From an uncultured bacterium (GTDB lineage: Bacteria; Babelota; Babeliae; Babelales; Vermiphilaceae), in contig OY969806.1 in assembly GCA_963703265.1 (NCBI GenBank), forward strand, positions 722,407 through 786,406: 64,000 nt of DNA, read 5' to 3'. The notes under the pieces are model-generated. The model worked only from the letters and a program-made list of their open reading frames with translations, was not told where the DNA came from and made no database searches. The translations under genes were made by a program, and so were the position numbers. Shown here in pieces: positions 11,910 through 64,000 of this stretch; positions within the stretch are counted from its first letter, which is position 1, and every line of letters begins with the position of its first letter.

Positions 11910-11992
11910 ATAAATGCCTAATAGTTTACGGTGCAAAGATTATTTAATGTTTGTAGTAATTTTATTATATATTACATAAATGTGTCAAATTA

Positions 11993-13848: not shown

Positions 13849-14430
13849 TTAATTGTTTGGAAAGCATGTTTTCCAATATGCATTGATATTAGATCGATGA
13901 GTGCTTATAATCCATAGTGCAGCAAAAAGTGAAAACAAAAAAAATGGAATGTCATAGAATTTATACGCAAGAGCTGGTAAAAAAATTACGGTAATTATTG
14001 ATGCAATACCAACGGTAGGCGTGATGGTAAGTAGTACAAGCCATAAGGAGAAAAATAATCCAGTAACGTATATATTAAGCGCCGCAAAAAGACCGCAGAG
14101 TGTTGCGCCGCCTTTGCCACCACTTCCACGCAGGAATATGGAATAACCATTACCAAAGAGTACTATGCAGGAAAAAATATAGATATATTTAAGAGAAAAA
14201 TAGGGCAATATTATATGGATAAAGAGGAATGCTTTTCCTGCATCAAGTAAAAGAACAAGAAAAAAGTAGTGCAGGCCTAAAAAACGAGAGACATTTGTTG
14301 CACCAATATTGCCTGATCCATGCGAGCGAATATCAGTAATTCCTTTTAATCGTGCAATAATATAACCGGTTGGTATAGCTCCGATGATGTAAGCACAAAG
14401 TGTTGTGATTATAAAGGTTATAATGTTCAT
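13849..14430 (-). CDS. plsY: Glycerol-3-phosphate acyltransferase PlsY
   Basis: GSGNIGATNVSR motif, about 5 TM helices, typical length. Confidence 0.9.
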   Translation of the reverse strand: MNIITFIITTLCAYIIGAIPTGYIIARLKGITDIRSHGSGNIGATNVSRFLGLHYFFLVLLLDAGKAFLFIHIILPYFSLKYIYIFSCIVLFGNGYSIFLRGSGGKGGATLCGLFAALNIYVTGLFFSLWLVLLTITPTVGIASIITVIFLPALAYKFYDIPFFLFSLFAALWIISTHRSNINAYWKTCFPNN

Positions 14431-14593
14431 ATATTTTCCAAAATTATTTTATATACTTAATTATTTTTATTTAATCATATCATTATTTTTCATTAAAATC
14501 GAAAAGAATTGTTTAGTGGTTTTAGCTAATATGTGTTATAGATGAGGGGAAAAATATTTTTATGTAGATCTCTATCATAAAGGAGCGTTGAGA

Positions 14594-15442
14594 ATGAAGA
14601 AAAATATTGTGATAATCGCATGTTTATTGGCCTTGCCAATGCGTGGTATGGAGCCGCAACAAAAAAAATTACAACCATATACTATAGTTGTGCATAATAC
14701 GCAAATTGTTTTGAAAAATAGTCCGTTATATACCGTTGATAAAACAGTGGGCATTGTAGGTGTTGGTAGAAACTGGCAACGAAAACTTCAAAAGCCAAAT
14801 TTTGGAGATAATAAATATATTGGAAGCACGGAATGTTTAAGTAATCAGGATGAATTATCTCTTTTGAGTTTTACTGGCACGGCAACATATGATTCTTATA
14901 TTATAGGTCAAGAGCTGTGGAAACAAGCTCAGTGTCACCCTATAGATAATTTAATATTGCGAGTTGTAGAACCAGATATTACAAAAAAAAAGGATTATAA
15001 AACTAAACAATACGATTGGTATTATTCGGTTCAACGCAGTACTGATAAAGAAGAGATGAAATCTATAGGATTTGAAACAACGGTTACCGGAGAATTGGCA
15101 GTTGAAGAAGCATTAACAGATTTAGGTTTATGTTATACTATTCTTTTATCTGACGGAATAAAAAATTTGGATAAGTTTAAACAGCGCGAGAAGAGCATTG
15201 CGTTGTCTGCGCTTGGTGCTCATATGGGGTTTCCAGAAGGTAAAGAGGCATTTATTTTAGTAAAGGCGATTATTGATTATATTGAAAAGAATGCGTCCAA
15301 TAAGGAAAAAAGTTATAAAAGAATTCACGTGCATGCGTCGGAAAATGAATTTAGTAATTATAAAAGAATTTTTGATGAAAAAATTTTAAAAAAAGAGTCA
15401 ACTGAGCAGGCGGAATATGCTACTAGTTGTGTTGTATCATAG
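14594..15442 (+). CDS. Secreted hypothetical protein ending in the CaaX box CVVS
   Basis: AAGGAG at 14580-14585, then ATG at 14594. Signal-like MKKNIVIIACLLALPMRG-MEPQQ. C-terminus ...EYATSCVVS*. Confidence 0.65.
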   Translation: MKKNIVIIACLLALPMRGMEPQQKKLQPYTIVVHNTQIVLKNSPLYTVDKTVGIVGVGRNWQRKLQKPNFGDNKYIGSTECLSNQDELSLLSFTGTATYDSYIIGQELWKQAQCHPIDNLILRVVEPDITKKKDYKTKQYDWYYSVQRSTDKEEMKSIGFETTVTGELAVEEALTDLGLCYTILLSDGIKNLDKFKQREKSIALSALGAHMGFPEGKEAFILVKAIIDYIEKNASNKEKSYKRIHVHASENEFSNYKRIFDEKILKKESTEQAEYATSCVVS

Positions 15443-21243: not shown

Positions 21244-21900
21244 TTATTGTGATGAATTATTAGTGTCATATAATATGTTTGCCATTGTTATTATTTCATC
21301 AGGAGGTGTGCATCGCATGGTATAAATGTTTTGAATGAGGGTTTTAAATTCTTCTATGGCGATAGTATTGGGAATAGTAGTAAATATTTTTCTGTTTTCT
21401 GTTAATTCTGGAGTAAAAAAAACTCCATATTTGGAGGCATTGTTTAGGGCAGTTAAAATTTTTGTATTTTCTTTATGAAAGGAAAGTTCTTCTTTTGTTG
21501 GTGAGGTAAAATTGTTTTTTGTAAGAAGTTCATTGTATTGACGAAGCCTTTCAAAAAAAACACTAATATAGGCAGGGCCATTATAAGGTGCATTGGTTAA
21601 ATTAAACAGTTTGTTTTTTACTGAGGATGGTTGATTAAATGCAAATTTGCCGATTTGATTTTCAGTAACATTACTTTGTTTTAATTCTTTTATGTTATTT
21701 AAAATTTCACACAAAACAGTTTCAGCAGTAGTGCTTGTTGGGGTAATTTGGGTGATTTTGTCATATGTTTTGTTATATAAAGTTTGTATGTTTGTGGCTT
21801 TAAATGATGATTGGTCAGCGGATATAACAGTGATTTCCATTGAATAAAGAGAAAAAGAAAGACAGGTTATGATTAGTGACATTGCGTATGATTTGTTCAT
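21244..21900 (-). CDS. Secreted hypothetical protein
   Basis: Signal-like MNKSYAMSLIITCLSFSLYS-MEIT. No recognisable domain. Confidence 0.6.
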   Translation of the reverse strand: MNKSYAMSLIITCLSFSLYSMEITVISADQSSFKATNIQTLYNKTYDKITQITPTSTTAETVLCEILNNIKELKQSNVTENQIGKFAFNQPSSVKNKLFNLTNAPYNGPAYISVFFERLRQYNELLTKNNFTSPTKEELSFHKENTKILTALNNASKYGVFFTPELTENRKIFTTIPNTIAIEEFKTLIQNIYTMRCTPPDEIITMANILYDTNNSSQ

Positions 21901-26625: not shown

Positions 26626-26722
26626 AGTGCATAATCCTTTGATTGTGATTTTATTTTTTTACTATAGCATAGTTATAAAATTTTGTTTAACTGATTAGCT
26701 TTTTATAAAGGAGAGATGTTTG

Positions 26723-28045
26723 ATGAAAAAGTACAACAATATAATGGTTTTACTCATGTTATTGTTATCTAACATGCCAATAAATGGAATGGAGGAGAGA
26801 GATCCTCAAGGGCCGATGGATTCTACATGGTTTTATGATCCTCATTGTATAGCTTTAACGGGCAATCAGTTTTATCAAAAACAAGAATGGGATAAAGCTT
26901 CAGATGCTTATAAAAATTTTTTAGTAGACAAACAACATAGTGAGTATAATAAACATAAGGTTGGGTTAAACTTGGCGTCATGTTTGCTTGCACAGGGTCA
27001 AGCGACACCTCATTGGGCTTGTTTTGATAGATTATTGAATATTGCAGAAGATAGACTTGTGCCTATCATGTCAGCTGGATCTATTTTCGGCAATGATAAA
27101 GAAGCATTAAAAGAACTTGATTTAGCGCAAGATGAATTAGTATGGGTATCAAGGGAAGATAAAAATTTAGTATTAGTCAGAACTGATCAAATTGGCATTG
27201 GTGATATTTTTCATTTTATATCAGCAGTTGATTTTTTTATAAAACTTACTAACTCTAAAGTAACAGTTTCTGTGCCTCAGTTTCTTAAAGATACTTTAAC
27301 GCCTGCGGCAGAGGCATATGGTTTTAATATTATTGGAACAAAAGATGATGTGCCAAAAACTGATTATGAAACACATTTGATATCGTTGCTTGGGTATCTT
27401 CAGCTTAGTCCTTCTCAATTAAATCCGGCAAAAGTTGTATTCACTGCACCAGAAAGAGCGATGAATGCTGTTTTGGAGCAAATAGCGGGTCCATTGAATC
27501 TTAAGTATACTGTTGCAGCGGTATTTGCGGGTGAAAATCGACAGGCAAAATTGATAGGTGGTAAAAAACTTCCTAACGATGCAAAAAGTCATGGGCGACA
27601 TCTTAATTCCGAAGGTTTTGAGGCTTTATTGGATAATTATTCAAAGCTGATGTTGATAGATTGTGGAACAAAGGCAAGTAGGATTACTATTAATAAAGAA
27701 TCCAATAAAGATCGGTGCTTGATGATTGCTGATGAAAAACAAGCATTTGATACGATTATTGCGTTGGGGTCAATTATGAATAAAGAAAAAAATATTATCG
27801 GTATTGGTGCTGATAATGGACCAACAAACGTTTTTGTGCGCTCTCTTACTAATGATGGGCAAGATCGTATGGCATTAATTACCCCAAATCCTCAAGAATA
27901 TGATGCGCGTATGGAAAATTGTAAAGATAAAAGTGATAAATATAAGCAACCGATTTCTAATGCGTGGATATATAAGTGTAAATCACCTTCAATTAAGCAT
28001 CAGACTAAGATGATTGAAAGAGTCTATCAGGATCTGACGCATTAA
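26723..28045 (+). CDS. Secreted protein with an N-terminal TPR-like segment; the C-terminal part is weakly GT9-like
   Basis: AAGGAGAG RBS then ATG at 26723. Signal MKKYNNIMVLLMLLLSNMPING-MEERD. TPR-like YQKQEWDKASDAYKNFL. IGIGDIFHFISAV resembles the heptosyltransferase-type GxGD motif (weak). Confidence 0.55.
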   Translation: MKKYNNIMVLLMLLLSNMPINGMEERDPQGPMDSTWFYDPHCIALTGNQFYQKQEWDKASDAYKNFLVDKQHSEYNKHKVGLNLASCLLAQGQATPHWACFDRLLNIAEDRLVPIMSAGSIFGNDKEALKELDLAQDELVWVSREDKNLVLVRTDQIGIGDIFHFISAVDFFIKLTNSKVTVSVPQFLKDTLTPAAEAYGFNIIGTKDDVPKTDYETHLISLLGYLQLSPSQLNPAKVVFTAPERAMNAVLEQIAGPLNLKYTVAAVFAGENRQAKLIGGKKLPNDAKSHGRHLNSEGFEALLDNYSKLMLIDCGTKASRITINKESNKDRCLMIADEKQAFDTIIALGSIMNKEKNIIGIGADNGPTNVFVRSLTNDGQDRMALITPNPQEYDARMENCKDKSDKYKQPISNAWIYKCKSPSIKHQTKMIERVYQDLTH

Positions 28046-37486: not shown

Positions 37487-39058
37487 ATGCGTTTTTTTAA
37501 TACCGCAGGTCCTGTTAATCCTAAAGATCATTATTATGTACCTCATCGGTTAAATGAAGCTGAAATGAGGCAGCTTATTGATCAGAAAAAATATTTCATT
37601 TTACATGCACCTCGTCAGAGCGGAAAAACTACCGCAATTAATGCCTTTATTAAGCAATTGAATGATTCTGACAATTATAGTGCTTTATATATTAATGTAG
37701 AACCTGCTCAAACAGCACGTAGCAATGTTGAAAAAGGCTTGTTTACTATTCTTAATATTATTAAAGCACGAGCACATAAGGCATTTTCAGACAAGATGTT
37801 CATTTTTTTTGATAAAATTACTGCTGCAGAAATATCGGGAAATAGTCTCTTTGAATGTTTGGAATATTTGTCAATAAATATGAGTAAGCCAATAATATTA
37901 TTTATTGATGAAATTGATTCGCTTGTTGGTGATACATTGATTTCTGTTTTACGTCAATTGCGTGCAGGTTATCCCGAACGACCGGATAGTTTTCCACAGT
38001 CAGTATGTCTTATTGGAGTTCGTGATGTGCGTGATTATCGCATTTGGTCTGAATCAGAGCATAATATGATATTGGGGGGCAGTGCATTTAATATAAAGGC
38101 AGAAAGTTTAACGCTGCCTGATTTTTCATTAGATCAATTACGCGATTTATATGAACAACATACTCAAGAAACTGGTCAACAATTTACTAACGATGCAATA
38201 GAATATGCATTTTATTTAACACAAGGCCAGCCATGGCTTGTTAACGCACTTGCATATCAAGCATGTTTTGTAGATGTGCCTGATTGTAGTCAGCCGATTA
38301 CTAAAGATATTATTGAACGCGCAAAAGAAACGCTTATTAAGCGGTGTGATACGCACATTGATCAGCTTATTTATAAATTACAAGAACCGCGCGTCCGTAT
38401 GATTATTGATGCCATTATTGGTGGACAAAGTGATTTAACAACATTTCCTTCTGATGATGTTCAATACGTAAGAGATTTGGGATTAATAAAACTAAATAAT
38501 TTTGATATTGCTAATCCTATTTATCAAGAAATTATTCCACGAGCACTTGCACAAATTACACAAGAACGAATCAGAGAATCAGCCGTTTTTTACCAAAATC
38601 CTGATGGTTCACTTAATATGCACAAATTATTGGAAAAATTCACCCATTTTTATCGTGAAAATTCGGCTACATGGCTTGCAGATTTTCAATACAAAGAATC
38701 AGGGCCGCATTTATTAATGATGGCTTTTTTGCAGCGAGTGATTAACGGCCTGTCCGCCGAAGCCTTGGCGAAGGAGGAAGGTGGAACGATTCATCGTGAA
38801 TATGCACTTGATCGTAAACGAGTTGATTTGCTTTTGCATTGGCATAAGCAGCGCATTGTTATTGAATTAAAAGTAAGGCGTGGCAATAAAACATTAGAAG
38901 AAGGATTGCTTCAAACAGCTGAATATATGGATATTGCCAACGCAACTGAAGGGCACTTAGTTATTTTTGATCCTATTTCAACAAAATCATGGGATGAAAA
39001 AATTTTTACTCAACAGCATGTTGTTCGTAAATATACAATTACTGTTTGGGGTATGTAA
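37487..39058 (+). CDS. AAA-type ATPase fused to a C-terminal PD-(D/E)XK nuclease-like domain, copy 1
   Basis: MRFFNTAGPVNPKDHYYVP, Walker A HAPRQSGKTT, Walker B ILFIDEIDSL, C-terminal RVDLLL...IVIELKV (D...ExK). Confidence 0.8.
   Translation: MRFFNTAGPVNPKDHYYVPHRLNEAEMRQLIDQKKYFILHAPRQSGKTTAINAFIKQLNDSDNYSALYINVEPAQTARSNVEKGLFTILNIIKARAHKAFSDKMFIFFDKITAAEISGNSLFECLEYLSINMSKPIILFIDEIDSLVGDTLISVLRQLRAGYPERPDSFPQSVCLIGVRDVRDYRIWSESEHNMILGGSAFNIKAESLTLPDFSLDQLRDLYEQHTQETGQQFTNDAIEYAFYLTQGQPWLVNALAYQACFVDVPDCSQPITKDIIERAKETLIKRCDTHIDQLIYKLQEPRVRMIIDAIIGGQSDLTTFPSDDVQYVRDLGLIKLNNFDIANPIYQEIIPRALAQITQERIRESAVFYQNPDGSLNMHKLLEKFTHFYRENSATWLADFQYKESGPHLLMMAFLQRVINGLSAEALAKEEGGTIHREYALDRKRVDLLLHWHKQRIVIELKVRRGNKTLEEGLLQTAEYMDIANATEGHLVIFDPISTKSWDEKIFTQQHVVRKYTITVWGM
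38750..38779 (+). repeat. In-frame 30-nt GC-rich palindromic insertion (LSAEALAKEE)
   Basis: ctgtCCGCCgaaGCCttGGCgaaGGAGGaa. Present at the same codon in copy 2 and absent from copy 3 (INGGGKIH versus ING-LSAEALAKEE-GGTIH). Confidence 0.75.
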
Positions 39059-42964: not shown

Positions 42965-44539
42965 ATGCGTTTTTTTAATACAGCGGGTCCCATTAATCCA
43001 AAAAATCACTATTATGTACCACATCGATTGAATGAGCAAGAAATGTATCAATTAATAGATCAAGCAAAATATTTTATTTTACATGCACCACGTCAGAGTG
43101 GAAAAACAACAGCAATTAATATGTTTGTTGAGCAATTGAATGCTGCTAATAAATATAAAGCATTATATGTTAATGTAGAACCTGCTCAGATAGCACGAGG
43201 TAATGTAGAAAAAGGCATGGAAATTTTTTTACGAGAATTACGCGAATGGGCAACTATTTTACTTTCATTAGATGATCCTATCTTTGAATATGTGCGAAAA
43301 GGATTAGAGCATTTATCAGGGAGTAGTTTAAAAGAAGTCTTGCAGGCTTGGTGTATTGCTTCGGATAAACCAATTCTTCTTTTTGTTGATGAAATAGATT
43401 CCTTGGTAGGTGATACATTAATTTCTATTTTACGTCAATTGCGTGCAGGATATCCTAATCGTCCGAAATCATTTCCACAATCAGTATGTTTATTTGGAGT
43501 TCGCGATGTTCGTGATTATCGCATTTGGTCGGAATCAGAGCATCATATGATATTGGGTGGCAGTGCATTTAATATAAAGGCAGAAAGTTTAACTATATCA
43601 AATTTTTCATTAGAACAATTGCGTGATTTATATGAACAGCATACTCAAGAAACTGATCAAAAATTTACTGATGAGGCAATTGAGTATGCGTTTTATTTGA
43701 CGCAAGGGCAGCCTTGGTTAGCAAATGCACTTGCATATCAAGCATGCTTTGTTGATGTGACTGATCGTAGTCAGCCGATTACGAAAGATGTTATTGAACG
43801 TGCAAAAGAAACTCTCATTAAGCGATGTGATACTCATATTGATCAACTTATTCATAAACTACAAGAGCCACGTGTTCGTACAATTATTGATGCTATTATT
43901 GGTGGACAAAGCGATTTAACAACATTTCCTTCTGATGATGTTCAGTATGTAAGAGATTTGGGTTTGATAAAACCAAATAGTTTTGATATTGCCAATCCTA
44001 TTTATCAAGAAATTATTCCACGAGCGCTTGCGCAGACTACACAAGAACGAATAAGAGAATCAGCCTTATTTTACCAAAATGCTGATGGCTCACTTAATAT
44101 GCAGAAATTGCTTGAAAAATTCACTCATTTTTATCGTGAAAATTCAGCGACATGGCTTGCAGATTTTCAATATAAAGAATCAGGACCTCATTTATTAATG
44201 ATGGCTTTTTTGCAGCGAGTGATTAACGGCCTGTCCGCCGAAGCCTTGGCGAAGGAGGAAGGTGGAACGATTCATCGTGAATATGCGCTTGATCGTAAAC
44301 GAGTTGATTTGCTTTTGCATTGGCATACGCAGCGCATTGTTATTGAATTAAAAGTAAAGCGTGGCAATAAAACATTAGAAGAAGGACTGCTTCAAACAGC
44401 TGAATATATGGATATTGCCAATGCGACTGAAGGGCACTTAGTTATTTTTGATCCTATTTCAACAAAATCATGGGATGAAAAAATTTTTACTCAACAGCAT
44501 GTTGTTGGTAAATATACAATTACTGTTTGGGGTATGTAA
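42965..44539 (+). CDS. AAA-type ATPase + PD-(D/E)XK nuclease-like protein, copy 2
   Basis: Same architecture as copy 1. The C-terminal ~390 aa are at least ~90% identical to copy 1. Confidence 0.8.
   Translation: MRFFNTAGPINPKNHYYVPHRLNEQEMYQLIDQAKYFILHAPRQSGKTTAINMFVEQLNAANKYKALYVNVEPAQIARGNVEKGMEIFLRELREWATILLSLDDPIFEYVRKGLEHLSGSSLKEVLQAWCIASDKPILLFVDEIDSLVGDTLISILRQLRAGYPNRPKSFPQSVCLFGVRDVRDYRIWSESEHHMILGGSAFNIKAESLTISNFSLEQLRDLYEQHTQETDQKFTDEAIEYAFYLTQGQPWLANALAYQACFVDVTDRSQPITKDVIERAKETLIKRCDTHIDQLIHKLQEPRVRTIIDAIIGGQSDLTTFPSDDVQYVRDLGLIKPNSFDIANPIYQEIIPRALAQTTQERIRESALFYQNADGSLNMQKLLEKFTHFYRENSATWLADFQYKESGPHLLMMAFLQRVINGLSAEALAKEEGGTIHREYALDRKRVDLLLHWHTQRIVIELKVKRGNKTLEEGLLQTAEYMDIANATEGHLVIFDPISTKSWDEKIFTQQHVVGKYTITVWGM
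44231..44260 (+). repeat. Same in-frame GC-rich palindromic insertion as 38750..38779
   Basis: Identical 30-mer at the homologous codon. Confidence 0.75.
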
Positions 44540-50260: not shown

Positions 50261-50902
50261 ATGATTAAATTATTCATCAAATATGGAATTTTGTCTATAT
50301 TAATAAATTTACCACACGTAATTATTGGAATGATAAAACCTTCAATAGAGATGGGAAATTTCCGTTTTCGTTTACATCACACTATAAAAGAAGGAATCGA
50401 GGACGCACATTACTTAGAAAATCATCCTGATGGTACAGGGGAAATTTATACGCGAGTCGCATCTCCTTATCTGTTAGATGAACATACTGGACCTCAAGCT
50501 ACTTTAGTTAAAAATAAGACTAATGATTATTATTTAAAAGTAAATGATTTAAAAGAAAAATATTGTCATCCTTTTAGAAATTTGATAAATAATAATGCAA
50601 TTTTAAGCAAACCACAAGAAGCATGCGAAATACTCTTAACAGATTGTTTTGATAGAACATTTGAAATACTGAAAGAATGTCAAGCGCGGGGCCCTTTTGC
50701 TCTTACTATTCCTAATGCGCAATACGCAAAGAATGGCATACCAAGACGTTTGATAGTTACAGCCTTGAAAGATCATTCCAAAAACAACCTTACACTCTTC
50801 ATTCGTGGTATCTGTGGGTTAGCTGTTCTTGCCATTTTTGCTATTATTTTATTGCACCTCAACAAAATGCCTCAGCTTGAAATTCTTTTATCATATCTAT
50901 GA
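50261..50902 (+). CDS. Hypothetical protein with a C-terminal tail anchor
   Basis: 213-aa ORF with a single TM (GICGLAVLAIFAIILLHL) about 15 aa from the end. Confidence 0.5.
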   Translation: MIKLFIKYGILSILINLPHVIIGMIKPSIEMGNFRFRLHHTIKEGIEDAHYLENHPDGTGEIYTRVASPYLLDEHTGPQATLVKNKTNDYYLKVNDLKEKYCHPFRNLINNNAILSKPQEACEILLTDCFDRTFEILKECQARGPFALTIPNAQYAKNGIPRRLIVTALKDHSKNNLTLFIRGICGLAVLAIFAIILLHLNKMPQLEILLSYL

Positions 50903-51106: not shown

Positions 51107-52660
51107 TTACATACCCCACACAGTAATAATATCTTTACCTATTTCATGCTGTTGAACAAAAATTTTTTCATCCCATGATTTATTTGATTTGCGATTAAAT
51201 ACAATTAAATGACCTTCTGTTGCATTATTAGTATTCATGTAATTGGAAGTTTGTTGTAGGCCATCGGGAATGGTTTGTGGGCCACGATCAATTTTAAGTT
51301 CAATTACAATGCGCTGATTATTCCAAAAAATTAATAAATCAACACGCTTTCTGCCTAACGCATATTCTCGATGAATCTTTCCCCCACCATTTATAATCCT
51401 TTGCAAAAAAGCCATCAATAATAAATGTGGTCCTGACTCTTTATAATCAAACTTTTCTAACCAAATGTCAGAATTTTCACGATAAAATTGCGTAAATGCT
51501 TCAAGCATTTTATGCATATTTAATGAACCATCATTATTTTTATACCAACTATTTCCTGGTGTAGTTTCTTGCATACTTTCTTGATCGGTATATACCAATT
51601 CACGAGGAATAACTTCTTGATATATTGGATTTGCTATTTTTATTCCTTTTTGCGTGATAAGTCCTAAATCGCGAACATATTGTAAATCATCTATTTTAAA
51701 TGATTCTTCTTGGCCTGTGCCACTAATAATTGCGTCAATAATACGACGAACACGTGGCTCTTCTAATTTATGAACCAGTTGATCAATATGTGTATCTCTG
51801 CGTAAAATAAGCACATCTTTTGCTCGCTCAATAACATCTTTGGTAATTAGCTGAGTGCGATCAGTAACATCCCTAAAACATGCTTGATATGCCAAAGCAT
51901 TTACGAGCCATGGCTGACCTTGCGTTAAATAAAATGCATATTCTACCGCCTCATCAGTAAATTGTTGACCAGTTTCTTGAGTATGCTGCGCATACAAAAT
52001 TTGAATTTGCTCTAATGAAAAATTAGATAAAGTTAAACTTTCTGCCTTTACATTAAAAGCGCTACCACCAAGCACCATATTATGCTCTGATTCAGACCAA
52101 ATACGATAATCACGCACATCACGCACGCCAACTAAACATACCGATTGAGGAAAATTATCAGGTCGTTCATTATAACCTGCTCGTAATTGCCGTAAAACAG
52201 AAATAAGTGTATCACCAACAAGAGAATCAATTTCATCAATAAAAAGAACAATTGGTTTATCAGATGACCGACTCCATTCTTCCAAAACTTCTTGTAAACT
52301 TCCACCCGAAACTCTTTCTAATGCATTTTCAATATGAGTAAAAAATGAATCATCATTTTTTAATAATAATTTTGCAGCTCCACGTAATCTATTTAAAATA
52401 ATTTCCATAGCATGTTTAACATCATTGCGTGCAGCCTGTGCAGGCTCAATATTGACATATAATGCTTTATAATTGTTGGTAGCGTTGAGCTTCTGTGCAA
52501 ACATACGAATTGCGGTTGTTTTACCGCTTTGTCGCGGCGCATGTAAAATAAAATATTTTTTTTCTTCGATAAGTTGTAGAAACAAAGCTTCATCTAATCT
52601 ATGCGGAACATAATAGTGATCTTTTGGATTTACCGGGCCAGCAATTGTAAACGTACGCAT
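51107..52660 (-). CDS. AAA-type ATPase + PD-(D/E)XK nuclease-like protein, copy 3 (divergent, no palindrome insert)
   Basis: MRTFTIAGPVNPKDHYYVP, GKTT, LFIDEIDSL, RVDLLIFWNNQRIVIELKI. Confidence 0.8.
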   Translation of the reverse strand: MRTFTIAGPVNPKDHYYVPHRLDEALFLQLIEEKKYFILHAPRQSGKTTAIRMFAQKLNATNNYKALYVNIEPAQAARNDVKHAMEIILNRLRGAAKLLLKNDDSFFTHIENALERVSGGSLQEVLEEWSRSSDKPIVLFIDEIDSLVGDTLISVLRQLRAGYNERPDNFPQSVCLVGVRDVRDYRIWSESEHNMVLGGSAFNVKAESLTLSNFSLEQIQILYAQHTQETGQQFTDEAVEYAFYLTQGQPWLVNALAYQACFRDVTDRTQLITKDVIERAKDVLILRRDTHIDQLVHKLEEPRVRRIIDAIISGTGQEESFKIDDLQYVRDLGLITQKGIKIANPIYQEVIPRELVYTDQESMQETTPGNSWYKNNDGSLNMHKMLEAFTQFYRENSDIWLEKFDYKESGPHLLLMAFLQRIINGGGKIHREYALGRKRVDLLIFWNNQRIVIELKIDRGPQTIPDGLQQTSNYMNTNNATEGHLIVFNRKSNKSWDEKIFVQQHEIGKDIITVWGM

Positions 52661-52695: not shown

Positions 52696-53544
52696 TTACC
52701 AGTTAAGATTTTCTGGGAAATATTCCGAGACTAACTCTTTATAGTATGGCATAAGTTCTTTTATATTAACAGGATGTGTACTTTTTGAATAAAGATCATA
52801 GGTGCTAAATAATTTTAACCATTTCATCATTGATGTATCATAATCATTCATTAAATAATAATAATCGTCTTCTTTATGAGCAGCATAAAATGAGTGGTAT
52901 CGAATAATATAGAGAGCTTCTTGGGGCAAATAGTTTTTTATTACTAAATAGAGATATTCGTCATGGCCCCATGACATATGTACTGAATTAAGTCCGCAAT
53001 GGGGATGATAAATGCCATAGTGTGTTTGTAGTGCTGCATTATTAATATCGGGATTATATTTAAAATAAGGATTAAAAATAATTTTATTTGAGTATGCACA
53101 ACCAACGGGGAATGTGTCGCCCACTACGGCCCATTGTGGTTCGCCAAAAAGTATTAAAACTTTTCCAAGATCATGAATTAATCCTACCAAAATCAGCCAA
53201 CGCGGTTGCCCATCTAAACGTAATTTTTCTGCTGTTTGAAATGCATGGACAGTTTGAGCCTGTTCTAAATCGGGATCGCTTTCATCGATGATAGTGTCCA
53301 ATGTTTGCATTGCTTGCCATATTCCCATGGATAATCTATCCAGAGTGCTATACTCCTTTTTTTTGTTGAGTACAAACTCTAATGTTTGGTTGGTGTGATT
53401 AAGGAGATAAAATTCTTTTACTGTTGCAGATGCATTATTTTCATAATCACGAAAATTATGAGTTATTGTTCCTTTAGAATTACAAAAGATAATGGTTGAT
53501 GTGGTGAGAAAGTAGAGAGATAAAAAGATGTTTTTATTATGCAT
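52696..53544 (-). CDS. myo-Inositol oxygenase (MIOX) with an N-terminal signal/anchor
   Basis: Near-continuous match to animal MIOX motifs: DESDPD, HAFQTAE, GLIHDLGKV, GEPQWAVVGDTFPVGC, HPHCGL, MSWGHDEYLY, IIRYHSFY, C-terminal NLNW. Start taken at the ATG at 53544. Confidence 0.9.
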   Translation of the reverse strand: MHNKNIFLSLYFLTTSTIIFCNSKGTITHNFRDYENNASATVKEFYLLNHTNQTLEFVLNKKKEYSTLDRLSMGIWQAMQTLDTIIDESDPDLEQAQTVHAFQTAEKLRLDGQPRWLILVGLIHDLGKVLILFGEPQWAVVGDTFPVGCAYSNKIIFNPYFKYNPDINNAALQTHYGIYHPHCGLNSVHMSWGHDEYLYLVIKNYLPQEALYIIRYHSFYAAHKEDDYYYLMNDYDTSMMKWLKLFSTYDLYSKSTHPVNIKELMPYYKELVSEYFPENLNW

Positions 53545-53573
53545 CGGGATTCCTTTTTTTTGTAGATTATTAT

Positions 53574-53598
53574 TTTTAATAAAACAAAACAAGGGTGA
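53574..53598 (-). promoter_or_regulatory. 25-nt upstream motif shared with the PAP2 gene
   Basis: Coding-strand CACCCTTGTTTTGTTTTATTAAAAA, 30 nt upstream of the MIOX ATG. 24/25 identical to 56532..56556. Contains a TATTAA -10-like hexamer. Confidence 0.35.
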
Positions 53599-53662
53599 CA
53601 TATTATTAAGATAAATGTAAGCTTATTTGTTATTAATAATTTAGTTAATAAAGGATGGTTGT

Positions 53663-55603
53663 TTGGTAGATAAGAAAATATTTTTTTTATTTAATGTTTT
53701 AATTTTTTGTGCGTTAGTTTTTGGTGGTGATATTGTTGTCAAAAAAAAAGATGTCAAAAAAAATAATATCTGTGCGTATTACAAGATACCAACGTATGAT
53801 AATACTAATTTTTTAGTCGATAATAAAATCTGTACCAAAAATTTTGATGGTAAGTTTATCATTTATGATAATATTATCGAACTTCCAATAGAAATATTGC
53901 AAAAAATAATGAGTGTATGTGATCTTGAATCTATTGGAAGGCTTAATCGTACATGTAGCAAAATAAATTCATATGGTATTATTAAACTATCAAGCCCAAT
54001 ACATTATAAAGAGTTATGGTGGGGAAAAAAATCACAAATAAATAAAGAGTTACAAGAGCAGAATTTAAATAATCTTTTTAAAGCATTTGAATTAGAAAAT
54101 GGTTTTTTTAAATGTTCATATATACTTAGTTTTTTAAGCATTAAAGCGAATGGTGAAGATGAGTTTAAAAGTCTTAGTGAATTAGATCAATCTATATTTG
54201 ATACAATTTGTTCATTTCATGCGCAAGAAATAAAAAGAATTTTGAATAGCCATCATAATTTGACTGATAGTTTTATTCAAAAAAATTATATTGAATGTAA
54301 GGATTTACTGATAGGTGATTATAGGAAAAATGCTAAAGATTATTTTCTTTTTATGTTTATATCGGCTATTCAGAAAAATCAAATAAATAGAGTGAAGCAT
54401 ATTTTACAGTATTTTAATTGGCATGGTAGTTTGGAAAAGGTTCCTTTTTGTCATTATTTTAATAAAGCAAGTCAAAAATTTACCATTGATGAATGTATAA
54501 GGCGGTCATTAATTAAGCAGGACAAAAATTTTAATGATAAGAAACTGCAAGAAACGCAACAGGAAATGATTGAATTTATATTAACAGATGATAAGTGTAA
54601 GGATTTGTGTAACGGATATGATATATGGGAGAATTTAGTTTTAAATTTGTATCATAATAGAAGCGACTATTTGAAGGATATGATTGATTTTTTGATGTCG
54701 AAGAAGTTTAAAAAATATACTGATGAAGGTTTCTCATATCATTTTTTTCTTCAAAAAAATGGTTTTTTTTCTGTATGCAAAGAAGAAGAATTTGATGATC
54801 TGATTAATTATTGGTATGAGAATAAAAATGAATATCTTTTAACTAAAGATCGTCAAATTGCATTGAGTGATTTTTATGTACAAAAAAATGTTGATTTTAC
54901 TAATAAAAAAATTATGTGGATAATAAATAATTTTTATAAAAAATGGAATGCGGAGTATAATGAAAAATATGCCTGGTTTTGGAATGTTTGGTCTAAAGCA
55001 TTTGATGAAAGCAATGAGGAATTAATGTTGTTTTTGATGGATAATAGTTTCTATGACTATGGTCATTGTTCTTATGAAATTTTTGAATGTTTATGTAAAA
55101 ATGGTAAAATAGATTTTGCTCAAAGATTGATTAAAGAAATAATTAACAAAAAAACATCCCATTTGTCTAGTTGCATGTCACTAGCATGTAAATATCAATA
55201 TGTTAATATAGTAAAAGATTTGCTTAAAGCAGAATGTGTTAATGAGGGGCTTAAGGATAACATATATTTTCACTGGGCATTACAGAATGATAATCCTGAA
55301 CCTGTTTTGAATTTGCTATTAAATAATGGAAAACTTGAAATAGAAAATAAGAGAAATGCATTAGATATTATGCGGTATAAGTATTGTGATAATCAGCAAG
55401 TTTATAATTTATGGAGATCTTTTTCTTTTTATGATAGATATAGCAGTAGAATAGAGATAATTTATTTTATGATAGGTAGTATATTTTGGGGAGTACCAGT
55501 TGCTTTGTTTTTATGTTTTCTCAATTCTTTTTTAGGTTTTTCAGTTTTGGTAATATTAATGGGTGCAAATGGCGTAGCTTTCTGGTTGTTTAAAATTTCA
55601 TAG
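53663..55603 (+). CDS. F-box-like protein with an N-terminal signal/anchor and two C-terminal TM helices
   Basis: LPIEILQKIMSVCDLESIGRLNRTCSKI matches the F-box LPxEIL...L..L..VCK pattern. TTG start after AAGGA. Confidence 0.65.
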   Translation: MVDKKIFFLFNVLIFCALVFGGDIVVKKKDVKKNNICAYYKIPTYDNTNFLVDNKICTKNFDGKFIIYDNIIELPIEILQKIMSVCDLESIGRLNRTCSKINSYGIIKLSSPIHYKELWWGKKSQINKELQEQNLNNLFKAFELENGFFKCSYILSFLSIKANGEDEFKSLSELDQSIFDTICSFHAQEIKRILNSHHNLTDSFIQKNYIECKDLLIGDYRKNAKDYFLFMFISAIQKNQINRVKHILQYFNWHGSLEKVPFCHYFNKASQKFTIDECIRRSLIKQDKNFNDKKLQETQQEMIEFILTDDKCKDLCNGYDIWENLVLNLYHNRSDYLKDMIDFLMSKKFKKYTDEGFSYHFFLQKNGFFSVCKEEEFDDLINYWYENKNEYLLTKDRQIALSDFYVQKNVDFTNKKIMWIINNFYKKWNAEYNEKYAWFWNVWSKAFDESNEELMLFLMDNSFYDYGHCSYEIFECLCKNGKIDFAQRLIKEIINKKTSHLSSCMSLACKYQYVNIVKDLLKAECVNEGLKDNIYFHWALQNDNPEPVLNLLLNNGKLEIENKRNALDIMRYKYCDNQQVYNLWRSFSFYDRYSSRIEIIYFMIGSIFWGVPVALFLCFLNSFLGFSVLVILMGANGVAFWLFKIS

Positions 55604-56599: not shown

Positions 56600-57511
56600 T
56601 TAAATCATATTGGTTCCAATGTTATCTACAAAATTTGATGTAACAAAACTTACTAGCAATTCTTGTTTAGTGGGTATTCTTTTTTTAGCAAAGATATCGT
56701 CAGGTGTATGATAATTAAGCGATTGATGAGGGCGATGTTTATTGTAAAAATCTATATAAAGTGCAAGTGCATCACGAGCTTGCTGAAGATTTTCAAAGCT
56801 GTGCAAATGTATAAATTCATATTTAATTGTTCTCCATAATCTTTCTATGTAAACATTATCAGCCCATCGACCTTTACCATCCATGCTTATAAAAATGGCT
56901 TTTTCTTGTAAAAAATTAACCCATAACTCACTTGTAAATTGACATCCTTGATCGCTGTTAATAATTTCAGGAACATTGCTCTGAAGAGCTGAACCAAGAG
57001 CTTCTAAGCAAGATAATGTATCCAAAGAATTTGAAAAATTCCAACCCATAATTTTTCTACTAAAAATATCAATTAAGCAAATCAAATAAACAAAATGTCC
57101 ACGTACTTTTATATAAGTTATATCAACTTGCCATACCTGATTTGGCCGCTCGATTTTCATATTACGCAATAAATAAGGAAATACTTTGTGCGTTAAATTT
57201 CTTATGGTAGTTATTTTTTTAGGATAAATAGCTTGAATTCCAGCTTCTTTAAGCAAGCGATATACTTTTTTGTGATTAATCAGTACCCCGGCCTTGCGTA
57301 ATTCAACAGTCATTCTTCTGTATCCATAAAAAGCATGTCGTTCATAAATAACACGTAATTTATCAGTTATTTCTTTGTCTGAACTATTATCTTGTATAAT
57401 TTCTTTATAATACATTGAACTCCTCGGAACATTAAGCAGTTCGCATTTTTTCTTTAAATTTAAACTTTTAATTTTTTCTTTTTTGTTCTCTTCATTACTG
57501 CGCTCAATCAC
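56600..57511 (-). CDS. IS3 transposase OrfB (DDE integrase core)
   Basis: WQVDITYI, NSDQGCQFTS and ERLWRTIKYE give D, D and E in rve-domain spacing. The frame is open upstream to 57558. Confidence 0.85.
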   Translation of the reverse strand: MIERSNEENKKEKIKSLNLKKKCELLNVPRSSMYYKEIIQDNSSDKEITDKLRVIYERHAFYGYRRMTVELRKAGVLINHKKVYRLLKEAGIQAIYPKKITTIRNLTHKVFPYLLRNMKIERPNQVWQVDITYIKVRGHFVYLICLIDIFSRKIMGWNFSNSLDTLSCLEALGSALQSNVPEIINSDQGCQFTSELWVNFLQEKAIFISMDGKGRWADNVYIERLWRTIKYEFIHLHSFENLQQARDALALYIDFYNKHRPHQSLNYHTPDDIFAKKRIPTKQELLVSFVTSNFVDNIGTNMI

Positions 57512-57517
57512 TTTTTT
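57511..57517 (-). promoter_or_regulatory. Canonical IS3 heptamer A AAA AAG, in orfA phase but 5 codons downstream of the orfA TAA
   Basis: orfA frame: aac TAA att tat ctt cac gtA AAA AAG tga. Confidence 0.4.
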
Positions 57518-57531
57518 ACGTGAAGATAAAT

Positions 57532-57807
57532 TTAGTTCCTGAGCGCTCGTTCTAAAAAATCACGCTCTGCTGTTATTTGACCAATGACACGATGAAGTCT
57601 ATCAATTTCCGCTTGTTGATTCTTCTTTTCTTTGACTTCAAATAGCTCTTTGCACTTCTCTTCAATTTCTTTTTTCCATGTTGATATTTGCGTTGGTGCA
57701 ATGCTATATTGTTGACCTAATTCGCCTAAAGATTTTTTCTCTTTGATAGCTTCTAGTGCGACTTTTGCTTTAAATGAACTGCCATGTTTTTTATATATTC
57801 GTGCCAT
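57532..57807 (-). CDS. IS3 transposase OrfA (HTH)
   Basis: MARIYKKHGSSFKAKVALEAIKEKKSLGELGQQYSIAPTQISTWKKE plus a leucine-zipper-like tail. ATG at 57807. Confidence 0.8.
   Translation of the reverse strand: MARIYKKHGSSFKAKVALEAIKEKKSLGELGQQYSIAPTQISTWKKEIEEKCKELFEVKEKKNQQAEIDRLHRVIGQITAERDFLERALRN
57553..57559 (-). promoter_or_regulatory. Candidate -1 frameshift heptamer T TTT TTA, in phase with orfA
   Basis: The minus strand reads gaT TTT TTA gaa. The -1 frame opens exactly here, with TGA immediately upstream in that frame. Confidence 0.4.
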
Positions 57808-58061
57808 AATAAACCCCAAGTTATAATGATTATTTTTTACCATCATTACACCCTAACATTTTTCAAATCTCATATGTCTAGTTTCTTGGGTTCATTATAT
57901 GGTGTGTAGTGAGTGTTGATGCGATTTAGTTGTAATTATTTTTTAATAAATGAAGTTTTTCTGTTGCGATTATTGTTGATAGATCAAAAATTATGTATTA
58001 TTATGTTATTTGTGTGTAATAAATACAATATGAATATTGCAATTGTTGTTAAGGATTTTTT

Positions 58062-59045
58062 ATGAGGCATAAACGAATATTTTGTATAGTGAGTGGTATG
58101 TTTTTATATATGAATATTATTGGAATGGAACAAGAGAAGAACTTAATGTTAATGCCAGATGATATTTTATATAATATAACACTTCATTGTACGCTGAGAT
58201 CAATTGTATGTTTTAAAGGAACATGTAAAAAATATAATAATAATGATATAAGTAATCCATATTATATAGGCAGATTAATATGTGGAATTTATAAAAATTC
58301 TTATGAAGCGATTGGAGGCCGTCGTGGAGTAGTAGAATGGTTGTATGAATATAAAGATGGAAAGCGTTTATTTAAAGAGTCTATTGATAATGAAAGGATT
58401 TGCGGTTATTTTTCAAATAAAAAATTATGTCTTCTAAAATATTTTGCTAAAAAGGCAGATCAAGTGATGTTTGATTTTTGCTATAATCACTTAAGTGATA
58501 TATGTTGTTTTAAAGATAATAAAAGTTGTTATGATAAAAATAAATGTGATTATGAAAAACTTTTTGATGATGCGGTTAGTTGCCCTAGCAGTTTTAGTTA
58601 TGATTTAGCAAATTTTTTGGTAAATCATAAAAAAGAAAATATTAATTTTGATAATGATAAACGTAATAAATTTTTTTTTCTTGTATGTATATATGGTGAT
58701 AATAGAATGGTGAAAAAATGGATGTTGCCTGGTGTTAATGTTAACTATGCACCAGAATACGCTTGTAAAAATACTCCTCTTCATTATGCATTTAATAACG
58801 GTAATGTTGAATTGGCAAAATTTTTGATGAAAAATGGTGCAGATATAAGTCATGCTAATGCAACAGGAGAAAGACCTTTTGATATTATGTTAAATAATTC
58901 TGAGTTTTGTAAGCTGTATGTTTCATTGGTATATCCGGAGTTATTGAAGGTGAAGGATGATGAAAATTTTTCAGTAATACAAAATATCGTTATTCCTTTG
59001 ACAGCAGTAGTAATTGGAGGAATTGGTTGTCTTTTTTTTATATAA
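58062..59045 (+). CDS. F-box-like + ankyrin-repeat protein with an N-terminal signal and a C-terminal tail anchor
   Basis: MPDDILYNITLHCTLRSIVCFKGTCKKY (F-box-like). ANK repeat NTPLHYAFNNGNVELAKFLMKNGADISHANATGERPFD. Terminal TM VIPLTAVVIGGIGCLFFI. Confidence 0.7.
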   Translation: MRHKRIFCIVSGMFLYMNIIGMEQEKNLMLMPDDILYNITLHCTLRSIVCFKGTCKKYNNNDISNPYYIGRLICGIYKNSYEAIGGRRGVVEWLYEYKDGKRLFKESIDNERICGYFSNKKLCLLKYFAKKADQVMFDFCYNHLSDICCFKDNKSCYDKNKCDYEKLFDDAVSCPSSFSYDLANFLVNHKKENINFDNDKRNKFFFLVCIYGDNRMVKKWMLPGVNVNYAPEYACKNTPLHYAFNNGNVELAKFLMKNGADISHANATGERPFDIMLNNSEFCKLYVSLVYPELLKVKDDENFSVIQNIVIPLTAVVIGGIGCLFFI

Positions 59046-62451: not shown

Positions 62452-63423
62452 TTATTGTATTGTGCAAGAAGAGGATGTGGTTGTTGTATCTTTTTTCTGA
62501 GATTTCTCTTGATCTAGAAAGTTTTTTATAGTATCGCATATGATTATATTAATATCGTTTGCTTTTATCTCAGGATATGACCCATTTAGGTATTCTTGCC
62601 AATATTCTGTTCCTTTATTTTCTTTGTATTCATTAAATAAGTATTTAAAACAATTTAGCGAATTGAATTTTATAGAATCGTGTATTAATGAGTGTAATCC
62701 TGAATTATTAGGTTTTGTTTGTGAGCATAATTTTTTTAGTTGATTTACATTGTCACATAATAAGGCTAAAGAGTAAGAAAGAAAGAAACCAGTTTGATTG
62801 TTTATTTTTGGGAAAAATGTAGTTGAGCTATCTAAAGGCCAAAGGTTAGTAGAATAAAAATAGTTTATATCGATTGTATCATAGTATTCTTGACATGTAC
62901 CAATGGTTATTTCTTTTAGAAATTTTCTTTTAATGTTAATCAATATTGTGCCCATATCAAGATTGTTATTTTTTTTTGCGAATAAAATGGAAGCGTGCAA
63001 TGTCCAGAATCTTTGACATGGGTAAAAATTTGGATTGTTTTTTGCAAATTTGATAGAAGGTATTGGTTGAATATTATCTAATATCCATTTTATAGAATTT
63101 AAATCATTTTTTTCTGCAATGACCGGAAGGATTAAATCAAATTTGTATGGGGAATGTTTAATATTTTTGTCATGAGTCTTTATAACTGCTAATACATTGT
63201 CAGGCATAAATGTCCATGTTTTAGGAGCGTCGGCGCCTACCTGAGCAAGATGTTTGTTAACTAATCTCATATCTTTTGGTTTAAATTGGGCTAGTATAAG
63301 ATACTTAGTTTCTATTGGTAATTTGTCAATGTAATAGGGCATATTCTTTTCTTCCATTCCCAAAATAGTTGGAATATAAAGAGAGATAAATAATATGCTG
63401 AGAGAGAAATATGATTTGTTCAT
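62452..63423 (-). CDS. Secreted F-box-like protein ending in the CaaX box CTIQ
   Basis: Signal MNKSYFSLSILFISLYIPTILG-MEEKN. IDKLPIETKYLILAQFKPKDMRLVNKHL. C-terminus TTTSSSCTIQ*. Confidence 0.7.
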   Translation of the reverse strand: MNKSYFSLSILFISLYIPTILGMEEKNMPYYIDKLPIETKYLILAQFKPKDMRLVNKHLAQVGADAPKTWTFMPDNVLAVIKTHDKNIKHSPYKFDLILPVIAEKNDLNSIKWILDNIQPIPSIKFAKNNPNFYPCQRFWTLHASILFAKKNNNLDMGTILINIKRKFLKEITIGTCQEYYDTIDINYFYSTNLWPLDSSTTFFPKINNQTGFFLSYSLALLCDNVNQLKKLCSQTKPNNSGLHSLIHDSIKFNSLNCFKYLFNEYKENKGTEYWQEYLNGSYPEIKANDINIIICDTIKNFLDQEKSQKKDTTTTSSSCTIQ

Positions 63424-63459
63424 AAAAGTTAGTCCTTATACATGTTTCTTTTTGAGAGT

Positions 63460-64000
63460 TTATTGTATTGGGCAAGAAGAAGGCATTGATATTTTTCTTT
63501 GCTGCTTTAAGTATTCTATAACCTTGTCGCTTACCTGAAATCCTCTTCCTGTTATTTTTAAACAGTGCAATATCAATTTATTACTTTCTGGAATAGATGA
63601 TGATTCTTTATATTTTGTAAATATAAATTCGAACAATTCTGGTTTATCAAAGCAATGGTAGATTAATTCTATTTTGCCATCATTAGTAGGTTCCACTTGG
63701 AACCATAATTTTTTAAGGTCATTTAAATCATTATTGAGTGCATTTATTTCATATAACTCAATTACGTTCTCGCATTCATTTTCTGGCAAGAGATTTGGTT
63801 TATGCTCTATAGCAGGAATATTTTGATAAATTTTTTGCCAACTTGTATTGATAAATTCTTGTGAATAATTATAAACTTTCAGATAATTTTTAATTAACAC
63901 TTCGCCGGCTTGTTCGTTATTATAGTGTTTTACTAATTTAAATGGGCCATAAGGATCATAATAAAATTGGCAGTTGATTTTATGAGATACTAAGTCAGCA
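63460..64000 (-). CDS. Paralog of 62452..63423 ending in the CaaX box CPIQ. The 5' end lies beyond the window.
   Basis: The frame stays open from 63900 up to the window edge (...HKINCQFYYDPYGPFKLVKHYNNEQAGEV-LIKNYL...). The C-terminal ~100 aa align with the neighbour (LNDLKKLWFQVEPTNDG / VNQLKKLCSQTKPNNSG). Ends MPSSCPIQ*. Confidence 0.65.
   Translation of the reverse strand, partial: ADLVSHKINCQFYYDPYGPFKLVKHYNNEQAGEVLIKNYLKVYNYSQEFINTSWQKIYQNIPAIEHKPNLLPENECENVIELYEINALNNDLNDLKKLWFQVEPTNDGKIELIYHCFDKPELFEFIFTKYKESSSIPESNKLILHCLKITGRGFQVSDKVIEYLKQQRKISMPSSCPIQ

Follow-up and report, generated by a model that had tools for sequence, protein, structure and literature searches.

Two neighboring minus-strand genes lie at the end of a 64,000-nucleotide stretch of bacterial DNA (contig OY969806.1; the whole stretch is called the window below). 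Both encode proteins that terminate in a candidate CaaX box, the eukaryotic prenylation motif in which a cysteine is followed by two residues, a1 and a2, and a final residue X. The first gene, P0001, is complete (62452–63423, minus strand, 323 residues); it was delimited from the list of open reading frames (ORFs) and the sequence itself, and it matches the hidden Markov model (HMM) of the family described below with E=9e-78. The second, P0002, is its upstream tandem paralog, of which the window holds the 3′ part (63460–64000, minus strand, residues 160–338 of 338; E=9e-33 on the fragment). This part encodes 179 residues, in a frame that stays open from 63460 to 63999 at the window edge. The 5′ part of the gene falls outside the window; the protein database contains the full 338-residue product, encoded on the same contig of 1,469,486 bp. 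A gap of only 36 nt separates the stop codon of P0002 from the start of P0001.

P0001 ends in ...DTTTTSSSCTIQ, with TTTTSSSCTIQ as the final residues before the stop, and P0002 ends in ...ISMPSSCPIQ. The codons of the two boxes occupy 62455–62466 (Cys-Thr-Ile-Gln, followed by the stop codon at 62452–62454) and 63463–63474 (Cys-Pro-Ile-Gln, stop codon at 63460–63462), both on the minus strand. The original prediction, that both minus-strand genes end in Cys-a-a-Gln, is borne out by these reading frames and their SSCTIQ and SSCPIQ termini. It had also described the DNA around the gene ends as conserved. A 21-nt string, TTATTGTATTG[T/G]GCAAGAAGA, does occur exactly twice in the window, once at each gene end, with 0 occurrences expected from 100 shuffles; however, the repeat extends over the S-S-C-x-I-Q-stop codons only. 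Judged by their alignment, P0001 and P0002 are real paralogs (BLASTP E=3e-08 for the in-window parts; 33–37% identity over the full length). They have in common a leader, in which a hydrophobic stretch lies between MNKSYFSL and LG|MEE, and the motifs LPIE.KY, MRLVNK and APKTWT.MP.

A protein family and its C-terminal box

Relatives were found by an exhaustive HMMER search with a two-sequence profile of P0001 and P0002. This returned 19 further proteins, one of which, P0016 (934 residues), was discarded as a spurious match to a repeat protein; profile searching together with locus look-ups raised the family to about 27 distinct members. A word-indexed protein search with P0001 as sole query recovered the two paralogs only, a close-clade alignment scan of species-representative genome contigs found no relative, and neither did a scan of viral contigs with the family. 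The species representatives thus do not include the genome of the window. A second scan of genome contigs yielded one metagenome-assembled genome (MAG), and a metagenome scan yielded one short contig with a relative. The members derive from metagenomes, soil and farmland included, or from three chromosomes that look complete and measure 1.20, 1.37 and 1.47 Mb. They usually occur in tandem pairs or larger arrays, such as P0006 with P0003 (locus L004), P0019 with P0028 (L006), two copies flanking a ybaK-like gene (L002), and a candidate array of five similar-sized ORFs on one Joint Genome Institute (JGI) contig.

The family alignment shows a five-part architecture consisting of a leader, a divergent F-box-like segment, a W.FMPD.VEK.YD linker, a helical repeat body and a polar tail that varies in length. 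Alignment columns have a mean identity of 27%, and the members that carry a CaaX box are about 25–45% identical to one another. The linker is near invariant, with W70, M73 and P74 conserved in at least 90% of members. In P0001 its W-x-F-M-P-D-x-V motif, located from the family alignment, reads WTFMPDNV (residues 70–77; 63193–63216, minus strand); this motif, which joins the F-box-like part to the repeats, is family-specific and has no known counterpart. On the reading that we favor, this is a small, new and fast-evolving family of secreted host-targeting proteins in uncultured bacteria with reduced genomes, most likely Candidatus Babeliales (phylum Dependentiae), which live as obligate parasites inside protist cells.

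C-x-I-[Q/L] stands at the extreme C-terminus of 13 of the 23 complete members. Cys at −4 and Ile at −2 are present in all 13, X is Gln in ten and Leu in three, and a1 may be T, A, I, P, L or V; the endings are CTIQ (5), CTIL (2), CAIQ, CAIL, CPIQ, CLIQ, CIIQ (2) and CVIQ. The bearers differ in how far the C-terminus lies from the last conserved Cys of the repeat body (43 to 139 residues), yet the box is always at the very end. The 15 residues that precede it are 100% polar in P0001 and 53–100% polar across the bearers, and the C-terminus of P0001 is modeled at low confidence. A free a1, an aliphatic a2 and an X that determines the enzyme make up the recognition profile of protein prenyltransferases, with S, M, Q, A or C at X for farnesyltransferase and L or F for geranylgeranyltransferase I. 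As far as can be read from the protein sequences, the terminus has the features of a CaaX box, namely Cys at −4, an aliphatic a2, an X within the set of the two enzymes and a polar upstream segment, and its substitution pattern matches recognition by both. The earlier suggestion that X = Gln is of the farnesyltransferase type agrees with an X restricted to Gln or Leu beside a constant Ile and a free a1. Leu as X for geranylgeranyltransferase I and an overlap between the two prenyltransferases have been described (PMC1847700).

In a neighbor-joining tree, box-bearing members fall on both sides of the deepest split, and the ten box-less complete members form about four groups. Because bearers lie on both sides of that split, the box is likely to be ancestral and to have been lost at least four times. 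A further view of its retention comes from L004, which is syntenic with the window (tandem pair, tetratricopeptide repeat (TPR) gene, pheS, galU, PAP2). The housekeeping neighbors are 75% (pheS), 67% (galU) and 68% (PAP2) identical between the two loci, and the family member only 36% (BLAST) to 45–47% (alignment). Despite this much greater divergence and a tail of other length, the L004 ortholog ends in SYSCTIQ. Conservation of the Cys in orthologs had been set beforehand as a point on which the idea could fail, and the residue is kept both here and in the 13 bearers as a whole.

Cys makes up 1.6% of the residues in large window ORFs, yet it occupies position −4 in 4 of 52 ORFs of at least 150 residues. 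Across 107 non-overlapping ORFs from the window and the loci, Cys occurs nine times at −4 compared with zero to three times at each of the other eleven terminal positions; six of these nine cases are family members, and the loci had been fetched via the family. One box-less clade has polybasic tails instead (...RKMERRRRIQGY, ...KRKEQRRRGY and ...KMRQRQRMNR; L002 6001–7053 and P0022, P0023 and P0025), which could be membrane or nuclear addresses in place of a lipid anchor. Another member, P0013, ends in CMIPY, which resembles a decayed box.

Leader, F-box-like segment and ankyrin body

By inspection, P0001 begins with a Sec-type signal-like leader (residues 1–22, MNKSYFSLSILFISLYIPTILG, then MEE; 63358–63423, minus strand), in which the basic MNK forms the n-region, about 15 residues form the h-region (Kyte-Doolittle 2.0), and positions −6, −3 and −1 are taken by Pro, Ile and Gly. 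Nearly all members, again judged by inspection, carry a comparable leader composed of M-[NKH]-K/T, some 15–18 hydrophobic or polar residues and a small end residue (G, S or A at −1), and the h-region is weak in some of them (Kyte-Doolittle 1.1). For the signal-like N-terminus proposed for the complete copy, inspection shows an n-region, an h-region, Ile at −3 and Gly at −1, in a leader that nearly all members share.

The Met right behind the leader is at least 90% conserved across the F-box/ankyrin family. The possibility that Met23 is the true start of P0001, with the leader as an annotation artefact, was rejected; some 25 homologs retain the leader in an open frame and with its hydrophobic character, and the sequence has a Shine-Dalgarno-like AAGGA 9 nt 5′ of the first ATG (63433–63437 and 63423–63421, respectively, minus strand). 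Because this element precedes Met1, we take Met1 as the start codon rather than the conserved Met23. In the window, at least eight proteins with a leader, among them both CaaX families (the second is described below), have a Met right behind the predicted cleavage site. These junctions read ICA|MDQ (1288–5991, minus), VLC|MII (10374–11936, minus), MRG|MEP (14588–15442, plus), LYS|MEI (21244–21900, minus), ING|MEE (26720–28045, plus), IIG|MIK (50261–50902, plus), IIG|MEQ (58062–59045, plus) and ILG|MEE (62452–63423, minus). This Met could reflect dual initiation, a leader fused to a start codon that predates it, or a cleavage preference peculiar to the lineage.

Behind the leader of P0001 lies the F-box-like segment (residues 35–59, LPIETKYLILAQFKPKDMRLVNKHL; 63247–63321, minus strand), whose assignment comes from hhalign at the level of the family. 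Its consensus is DI.P.I...L...D..DMRLVCK.WA for the family and QLPKEI...NLRLV.K..AQ for the clade that includes the window genes, and it is among the best-conserved parts of the proteins (R53, V55 and K57 in at least 90% of members). As a reference we used ten F-box sequences, each of which passes the Pfam F-box or F-box-like threshold. Against this set the N-terminal family alignment reached an hhalign probability of 94.3% (P=9.5e-8, 30 ungapped columns, helices H1–H3), with 86.4% for the clade-1 sub-alignment that includes the window genes and 94.4% for clade 2. Controls with the reversed family alignment (0.1%) and with 30 column shuffles (at most 0.7%) stayed far lower. Besides ankyrin, the family consensus matches only F-box and F-box-like in Pfam. 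The same two families are matched by six of ten other members tested (E 0.013–0.16), at the homologous position and over profile positions 1–33, and they are the sole non-ankyrin Pfam families that recur among members. On the evidence of these alignments, the N-terminal segment is descended from an F-box.

Most of the remaining length of P0001 is an ankyrin-like helical repeat body (residues ~95–314; 62482–63141, minus strand), assigned through the Ank_2 match of the family consensus. That match is well above threshold (E=7e-11, 43 bits against a cut-off of 27.3 bits), and 12 of 20 members match Ank_2 at E≤1, with P0009 scoring 31.1 bits. P0001 alone gives a sub-threshold Ank_2 match (E=0.084, 13.9 bits) and no other Pfam match. 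Searched against the PDB, the family profile retrieves ankyrin and TRPC ankyrin-repeat domains (E=2.6e-5). An AlphaFold2 (AF2) model of P0001 from a 25-sequence alignment has an all-helical repeat body (mean predicted local distance difference test, pLDDT, 72.5; predicted template modeling score, pTM, 0.71), with good confidence in the repeats, poor confidence in the first 65 residues and low confidence at the C-terminal residues. Within the poorly modeled part, three short helices span residues 37–63 at pLDDT ~50. An earlier model from two sequences (pLDDT 51) was not usable. By these family-level matches the protein body is made of ankyrin repeats, which completes a layout of F-box, ankyrin repeats and CaaX box like that of the Legionella effector AnkB.

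Other candidate anchored proteins and the genomic surroundings

A second CaaX candidate is encoded in the window at 14594–15442 (plus strand, 282 residues). It has the leader MKKNIVIIACLLALPMRG followed by ME, and it ends in ...EYATSCVVS, with the Cys codon at 15428–15430. This protein is unrelated to the F-box/ankyrin family and belongs to no Pfam family. Its only homolog, P0031, is 63% identical and ends in ...LGLFDSCVIS after a longer tail of different sequence. This pair of sequences suggests that the genome combines a leader with a conserved CaaX box a second time, on a protein outside the family. Two other endings are of note. The window gidB ends in CIRS, presumably by chance, and a 448-residue protein of the 1.2-Mb Babeliales genome (L006 16805–18151, minus strand) has a hydrophobic N-terminus and the end GQCPLI, a possible CaaX-type ending outside the family.

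Two other window genes encode leader-bearing proteins with an F-box-like segment and ankyrin repeats, and neither product has a CaaX box. The first (58062–59045, plus strand; ankyrin E~1e-9, hhalign 65% for the N-terminus against the F-box set) ends in a hydrophobic tail anchor, ...VIPLTAVVIGGIGCLFFI. The second (53663–55603, plus strand, 646 residues; Pfam F-box-like E=0.0025, Ank_2 E=7.9e-5, hhalign 59.5%) has hydrophobic C-terminal segments. On a shared F-box/ankyrin scaffold, such segments could serve as a different kind of membrane anchor. Comparison of the termini suggests that the C-terminus of these proteins is an exchangeable membrane address, for which a CaaX box, a tail anchor and a polybasic tail would be the alternatives.

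The window has a G+C content of 32%. Its housekeeping genes comprise serS, secD, prfA, gatA, pheS, galU, gidB and phosphoenolpyruvate (PEP) synthase, and an Rfam scan found tRNAs only. Two enzymes are of a type found in eukaryotes and archaea, namely an ATP-dependent DNA ligase (dnl1, 412 bits; 11993–13876, minus strand) and a myo-inositol oxygenase (348 bits; 52696–53601, minus strand). Three AAA_35 ATPase paralogs of 517–524 residues (37487–39058, plus; 42965–44539, plus; 51107–52660, minus) share the start MR(F/T)F(N/T)(T/I)AGP(V/I)NPK, and one of them has a PD-(D/E)XK match. Several leader-bearing ankyrin proteins complete the picture. The ATP-dependent DNA ligase, the many leader-bearing ankyrin proteins and the expanded AAA ATPases are Babela-like traits. 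In Babela itself an ATP-dependent ligase stands in for the NAD-dependent enzyme, the AAA ATPase family is expanded and an F-box protein is encoded (PMC4378268).

Placement of the family follows from its relatives. In the 1.2-Mb genome the family locus adjoins an HU gene that is identical to NCBI entries under the name Candidatus Babeliales bacterium and whose 90% cluster includes the 1.37-Mb MAG, which carries the family too. Because relatives of the family occur in genomes of Candidatus Babeliales, it is plausible that a eukaryotic host is involved. From this placement and the Babela-like traits we infer that the window, too, comes from a Babeliales/Dependentiae bacterium, which would make its source an obligate parasite inside protist cells. 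The original argument, that a conserved CaaX box implies action inside a eukaryotic host, gains support both from this placement and from the conservation of the box.

Three further features of the surroundings were observed. GC skew is between +0.1 and +0.33 in nearly every 2-kb bin of 1–64000, whatever the gene orientation, which is an unusually strong asymmetry. In L004 (5529–7411) galU is directly followed by PAP2; in the window (56600–59045) the ankyrin/tail-anchor gene and an IS3 transposase (57532–57846 and 56600–57511) lie between them, which suggests a mobile-element-linked insertion. Finally, a leader-bearing repeat protein of 1567 residues (1288–5991, minus strand) has relatives that are 26–31% identical (L006 1–5031 and L002 24–4391). 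These are TPR/Sel1-like and lie just upstream of the F-box/ankyrin family locus in both Babeliales genomes.

Proposed host targeting, rival readings and known systems

We lean toward the view that P0001 and P0002 are tandem paralogs of a Babeliales host-targeting family whose proteins are exported by their leader, prenylated by the host and anchored to a membrane as F-box/ankyrin proteins, an account that we consider somewhat probable. The N-terminal Sec-type leader, cleaved at [G/S/A]|M, would take the protein out of the bacterial cytoplasm, and a further, unspecified step would bring it to the host cytosol, much as the Babela and Chromulinavorax papers assume for their leader-bearing ankyrin proteins. 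There, given the conservation of the motif, host farnesyltransferase (X = Gln) or geranylgeranyltransferase I (X = Leu) would lipidate the Cys of the box, and cleavage of -aaX and methylation would follow. The lipid would then hold the protein on the cytosolic face of a host membrane. Once anchored, the ankyrin repeats, which are assigned at the family level, would bind host targets, and the divergent F-box may recruit the host Skp1–cullin–F-box (SCF) ubiquitin ligase through Skp1, like AnkB.

Several observations weigh against this account. A Sec leader places a protein in the periplasm, and we know of no route from there to the host cytosol in this lineage. Ten of the 23 complete members have no CaaX box, and outside the family the excess of Cys at −4 is not significant (3 of 101 ORFs against ~1.7 expected). 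The largest group of objections concerns the F-box. A search with the Pfam F-box HMM, as the original prediction had proposed, failed for the window copies, with no match at E≤1 to 10 for P0001 or P0002, and the family consensus stays below the cut-off (E=0.0039, 17.5 against 20.5 bits). Taken alone, P0001 and P0002 reach only 3.3% and 2.2% in hhalign. Between LP.E and RLV, P0001 has a deletion of three residues and P0002 an insertion of four, and in both copies the Trp of the F-box KxW is replaced by Leu or Phe; the window copies are the most degenerate members of the family. A sequence-profile search of the PDB with the N-terminal region found no F-box protein. Lastly, Foldseek searches of the PDB and BFVD with the pLDDT-72.5 model gave no significant match, the best being ankyrin/DARPin proteins and giant-virus ankyrin and F-box proteins at E≥0.01. 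Because these are only weak ankyrin-type matches, the structure neither confirms nor refutes the F-box. The F-box-like motif of the original prediction thus stands at the level of the family, where hhalign gives 94.3% against controls of at most 0.7%, and fails on the window copies taken singly. Nor is it confined to one copy as proposed, since P0002 has LPIELKY...MRLVNKYF as well as P0001 its segment at residues 35–59. Skp1 binding by the window copies is doubtful.

These weaknesses define one alternative, in which the proteins are delivered to the host and anchored by a prenyl group as ankyrin scaffolds with a relic F-box, and relocate or sequester host proteins at the membrane without Skp1 or SCF. 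The indels between helix 1 and helix 2, the missing Trp, the low single-sequence hhalign values, the sub-threshold family consensus and the low AF2 confidence over residues 35–63 all favor it. We nevertheless think it unlikely. The N-terminal segment, with its R53, V55 and K57, belongs to the best-conserved parts of the family; purifying selection on a relic would be unexpected, and the family-level homology to F-boxes is strong. Slightly less likely still, in our estimate, is that the proteins are periplasmic or envelope components that never meet host prenyltransferases and use the terminal C-x-I-Q/L for a bacterial purpose. They might, for example, be Sec-exported ankyrin-type self-protection or scaffold proteins, whose Cys would serve in a disulfide, in metal binding or in recognition by a protease or sorting factor. 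Such a location would suit a Sec-like leader conserved in almost all members. The family profile also weakly matches the N-terminus of Bdellovibrio Bd3460 (E=0.032), presumably an ankyrin-type self-protection protein. Moreover, no translocation system was identified, type IV genes not having been sought beyond the window. However, C-a-a-X at the extreme C-terminus is not known as a bacterial sorting or modification signal, and an F-box would have no known bacterial partner. A free a1, an Ile at a2 and an X of only Q or L is the pattern expected of eukaryotic prenyltransferases. Furthermore, most ankyrin proteins of Babela and Chromulinavorax bear signal peptides and have been interpreted as host-secreted (PMC4378268; PMC6561590).

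The shared ending could also be a functionless motif, inherited through phylogenetic inertia or arisen by chance. The family is small and all its members are related, the motif has been lost in 10 of 23 complete members, and the CIRS of gidB is presumably a product of chance. We hold this to be very improbable given that Cys −4 and Ile −2 are 100% conserved in the 13 bearers despite a mean column identity of ~27%. The box also stays at the exact end while tail length varies threefold, it is kept in an ortholog that is only 36–47% identical, and the unrelated CVVS/CVIS protein behaves alike.

A more far-reaching version of host targeting is speculative, and we give it a low probability. Babeliales effectors with Sec leaders would reach the host cytosol and carry an interchangeable C-terminal module (a farnesyl-type CaaX box, a geranylgeranyl-type CaaX box, a polybasic tail or a hydrophobic tail anchor) on an F-box/ankyrin scaffold, and the post-leader Met would be a second initiation site. 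If this were true, second initiation at that Met would give a leaderless isoform, and a conserved CaaX box would be a built-in reporter that signal-peptide effectors of an unculturable phylum enter the eukaryotic cytosol.

That hosts prenylate bacterial effectors is established in a few cases, which are type III and type IV substrates of cultivable pathogens. Under the host-targeting account that we favor, the solution of F-box, ankyrin repeats and CaaX box would have had an independent origin, on proteins with Sec leaders and in a phylum for which metagenomes are almost the only source of knowledge. That the eukaryote-like proteins of Dependentiae enter the host cytosol has so far been assumed in genome papers. 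Because prenyltransferases act in that compartment, a CaaX box under selection would be indirect evidence that leader-bearing proteins of Dependentiae do so. A leader combined with a C-terminal C-x-I-[Q/L] would also be a simple signature with which to mine effectors in uncultured intracellular bacteria, and C-to-S mutants together with Q and L variants are concrete constructs that follow from the finding.

Closest in lineage are the ankyrin proteins of Babela massiliensis and Chromulinavorax destructans, which probably share the lineage of the family and have the same Sec-type leader and ankyrin repeats. In B. massiliensis, 79 of 126 ankyrin proteins have signal peptides (PMC4378268), as do 78% of 98 in C. 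destructans (PMC6561590), and in both they are presumed to be secreted into the host. The texts of PMC4378268 and PMC6561590 make no mention of CaaX or prenylation, and a literature search for CaaX or farnesylation in connection with Dependentiae or Babela found no paper. For ankyrin proteins of Dependentiae, an address for lipidation at the C-terminus appears undescribed.

Among effectors of other bacteria, the Legionella Pel proteins and Salmonella SifA and GtgE also end in a CaaX box and are lipidated by the host and targeted to membranes (PMC13081727; PMC13423502; PMC4951486). In contrast to the proteins described here, these are type III or type IV substrates that have no Sec leader, contain other domains and lack an F-box/ankyrin body. 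PRANC proteins of the intracellular parasites Orientia, poxviruses and giant viruses likewise pair ankyrin repeats with a Skp1-binding module of the F-box type (PMC4148323); however, their PRANC domain is C-terminal and a CaaX box is absent. PRANC itself (PF09372) was matched only by the N-terminus of P0002 and below threshold (E=0.21, 12.4 bits against a cut-off of 25.8 bits). On the host side, eukaryotic FBXL2 (FBL2) is also an F-box adaptor with a conserved CaaX box, which tethers its SCF ligase to membranes and could be the model for mimicry. FBL2 is listed by PrePS/PRENbase as a conserved prenylation candidate (PMC1847700). Unlike the family, FBXL2 is eukaryotic, has leucine-rich rather than ankyrin repeats and has no leader; the likeness is drawn from descriptions and not from sequence homology.

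The nearest counterpart is Legionella pneumophila AnkB (Lpg2144/LegAU13), which has the same order of modules, an N-terminal F-box, ankyrin repeats and a C-terminal CaaX box. With the family profile, no Legionella AnkB chain appeared among PDB matches at E≤10, where an AnkB–Skp1 structure is presumably present, and the likeness is one of architecture only. Through its CaaX box (CVLC), AnkB is farnesylated by macrophages and Dictyostelium and anchored at the vacuole membrane, and it binds Skp1 (PMC2916131). In strain variants of AnkB a di-lysine motif takes the place of the C-terminal anchor (PMC5506055), a parallel to the CaaX, polybasic and tail-anchor alternatives seen here. The family proteins are about twice as long as AnkB, with more repeats and the family-specific W.FMPD.VEK.YD linker, and have Gln or Leu at X where AnkB has Cys. 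They also carry a Sec-like leader, whereas AnkB is a substrate of the Dot/Icm type IV system; the leader therefore points to a delivery route other than type IV secretion. Because the two come from different phyla (that of the window is probably Dependentiae), the common layout of F-box, ankyrin repeats and CaaX box is likely convergent. Our verdict, drawn from sequence comparison, is that the family probably represents a new and independently arisen case of AnkB-type host-prenylated F-box effectors rather than a new class.

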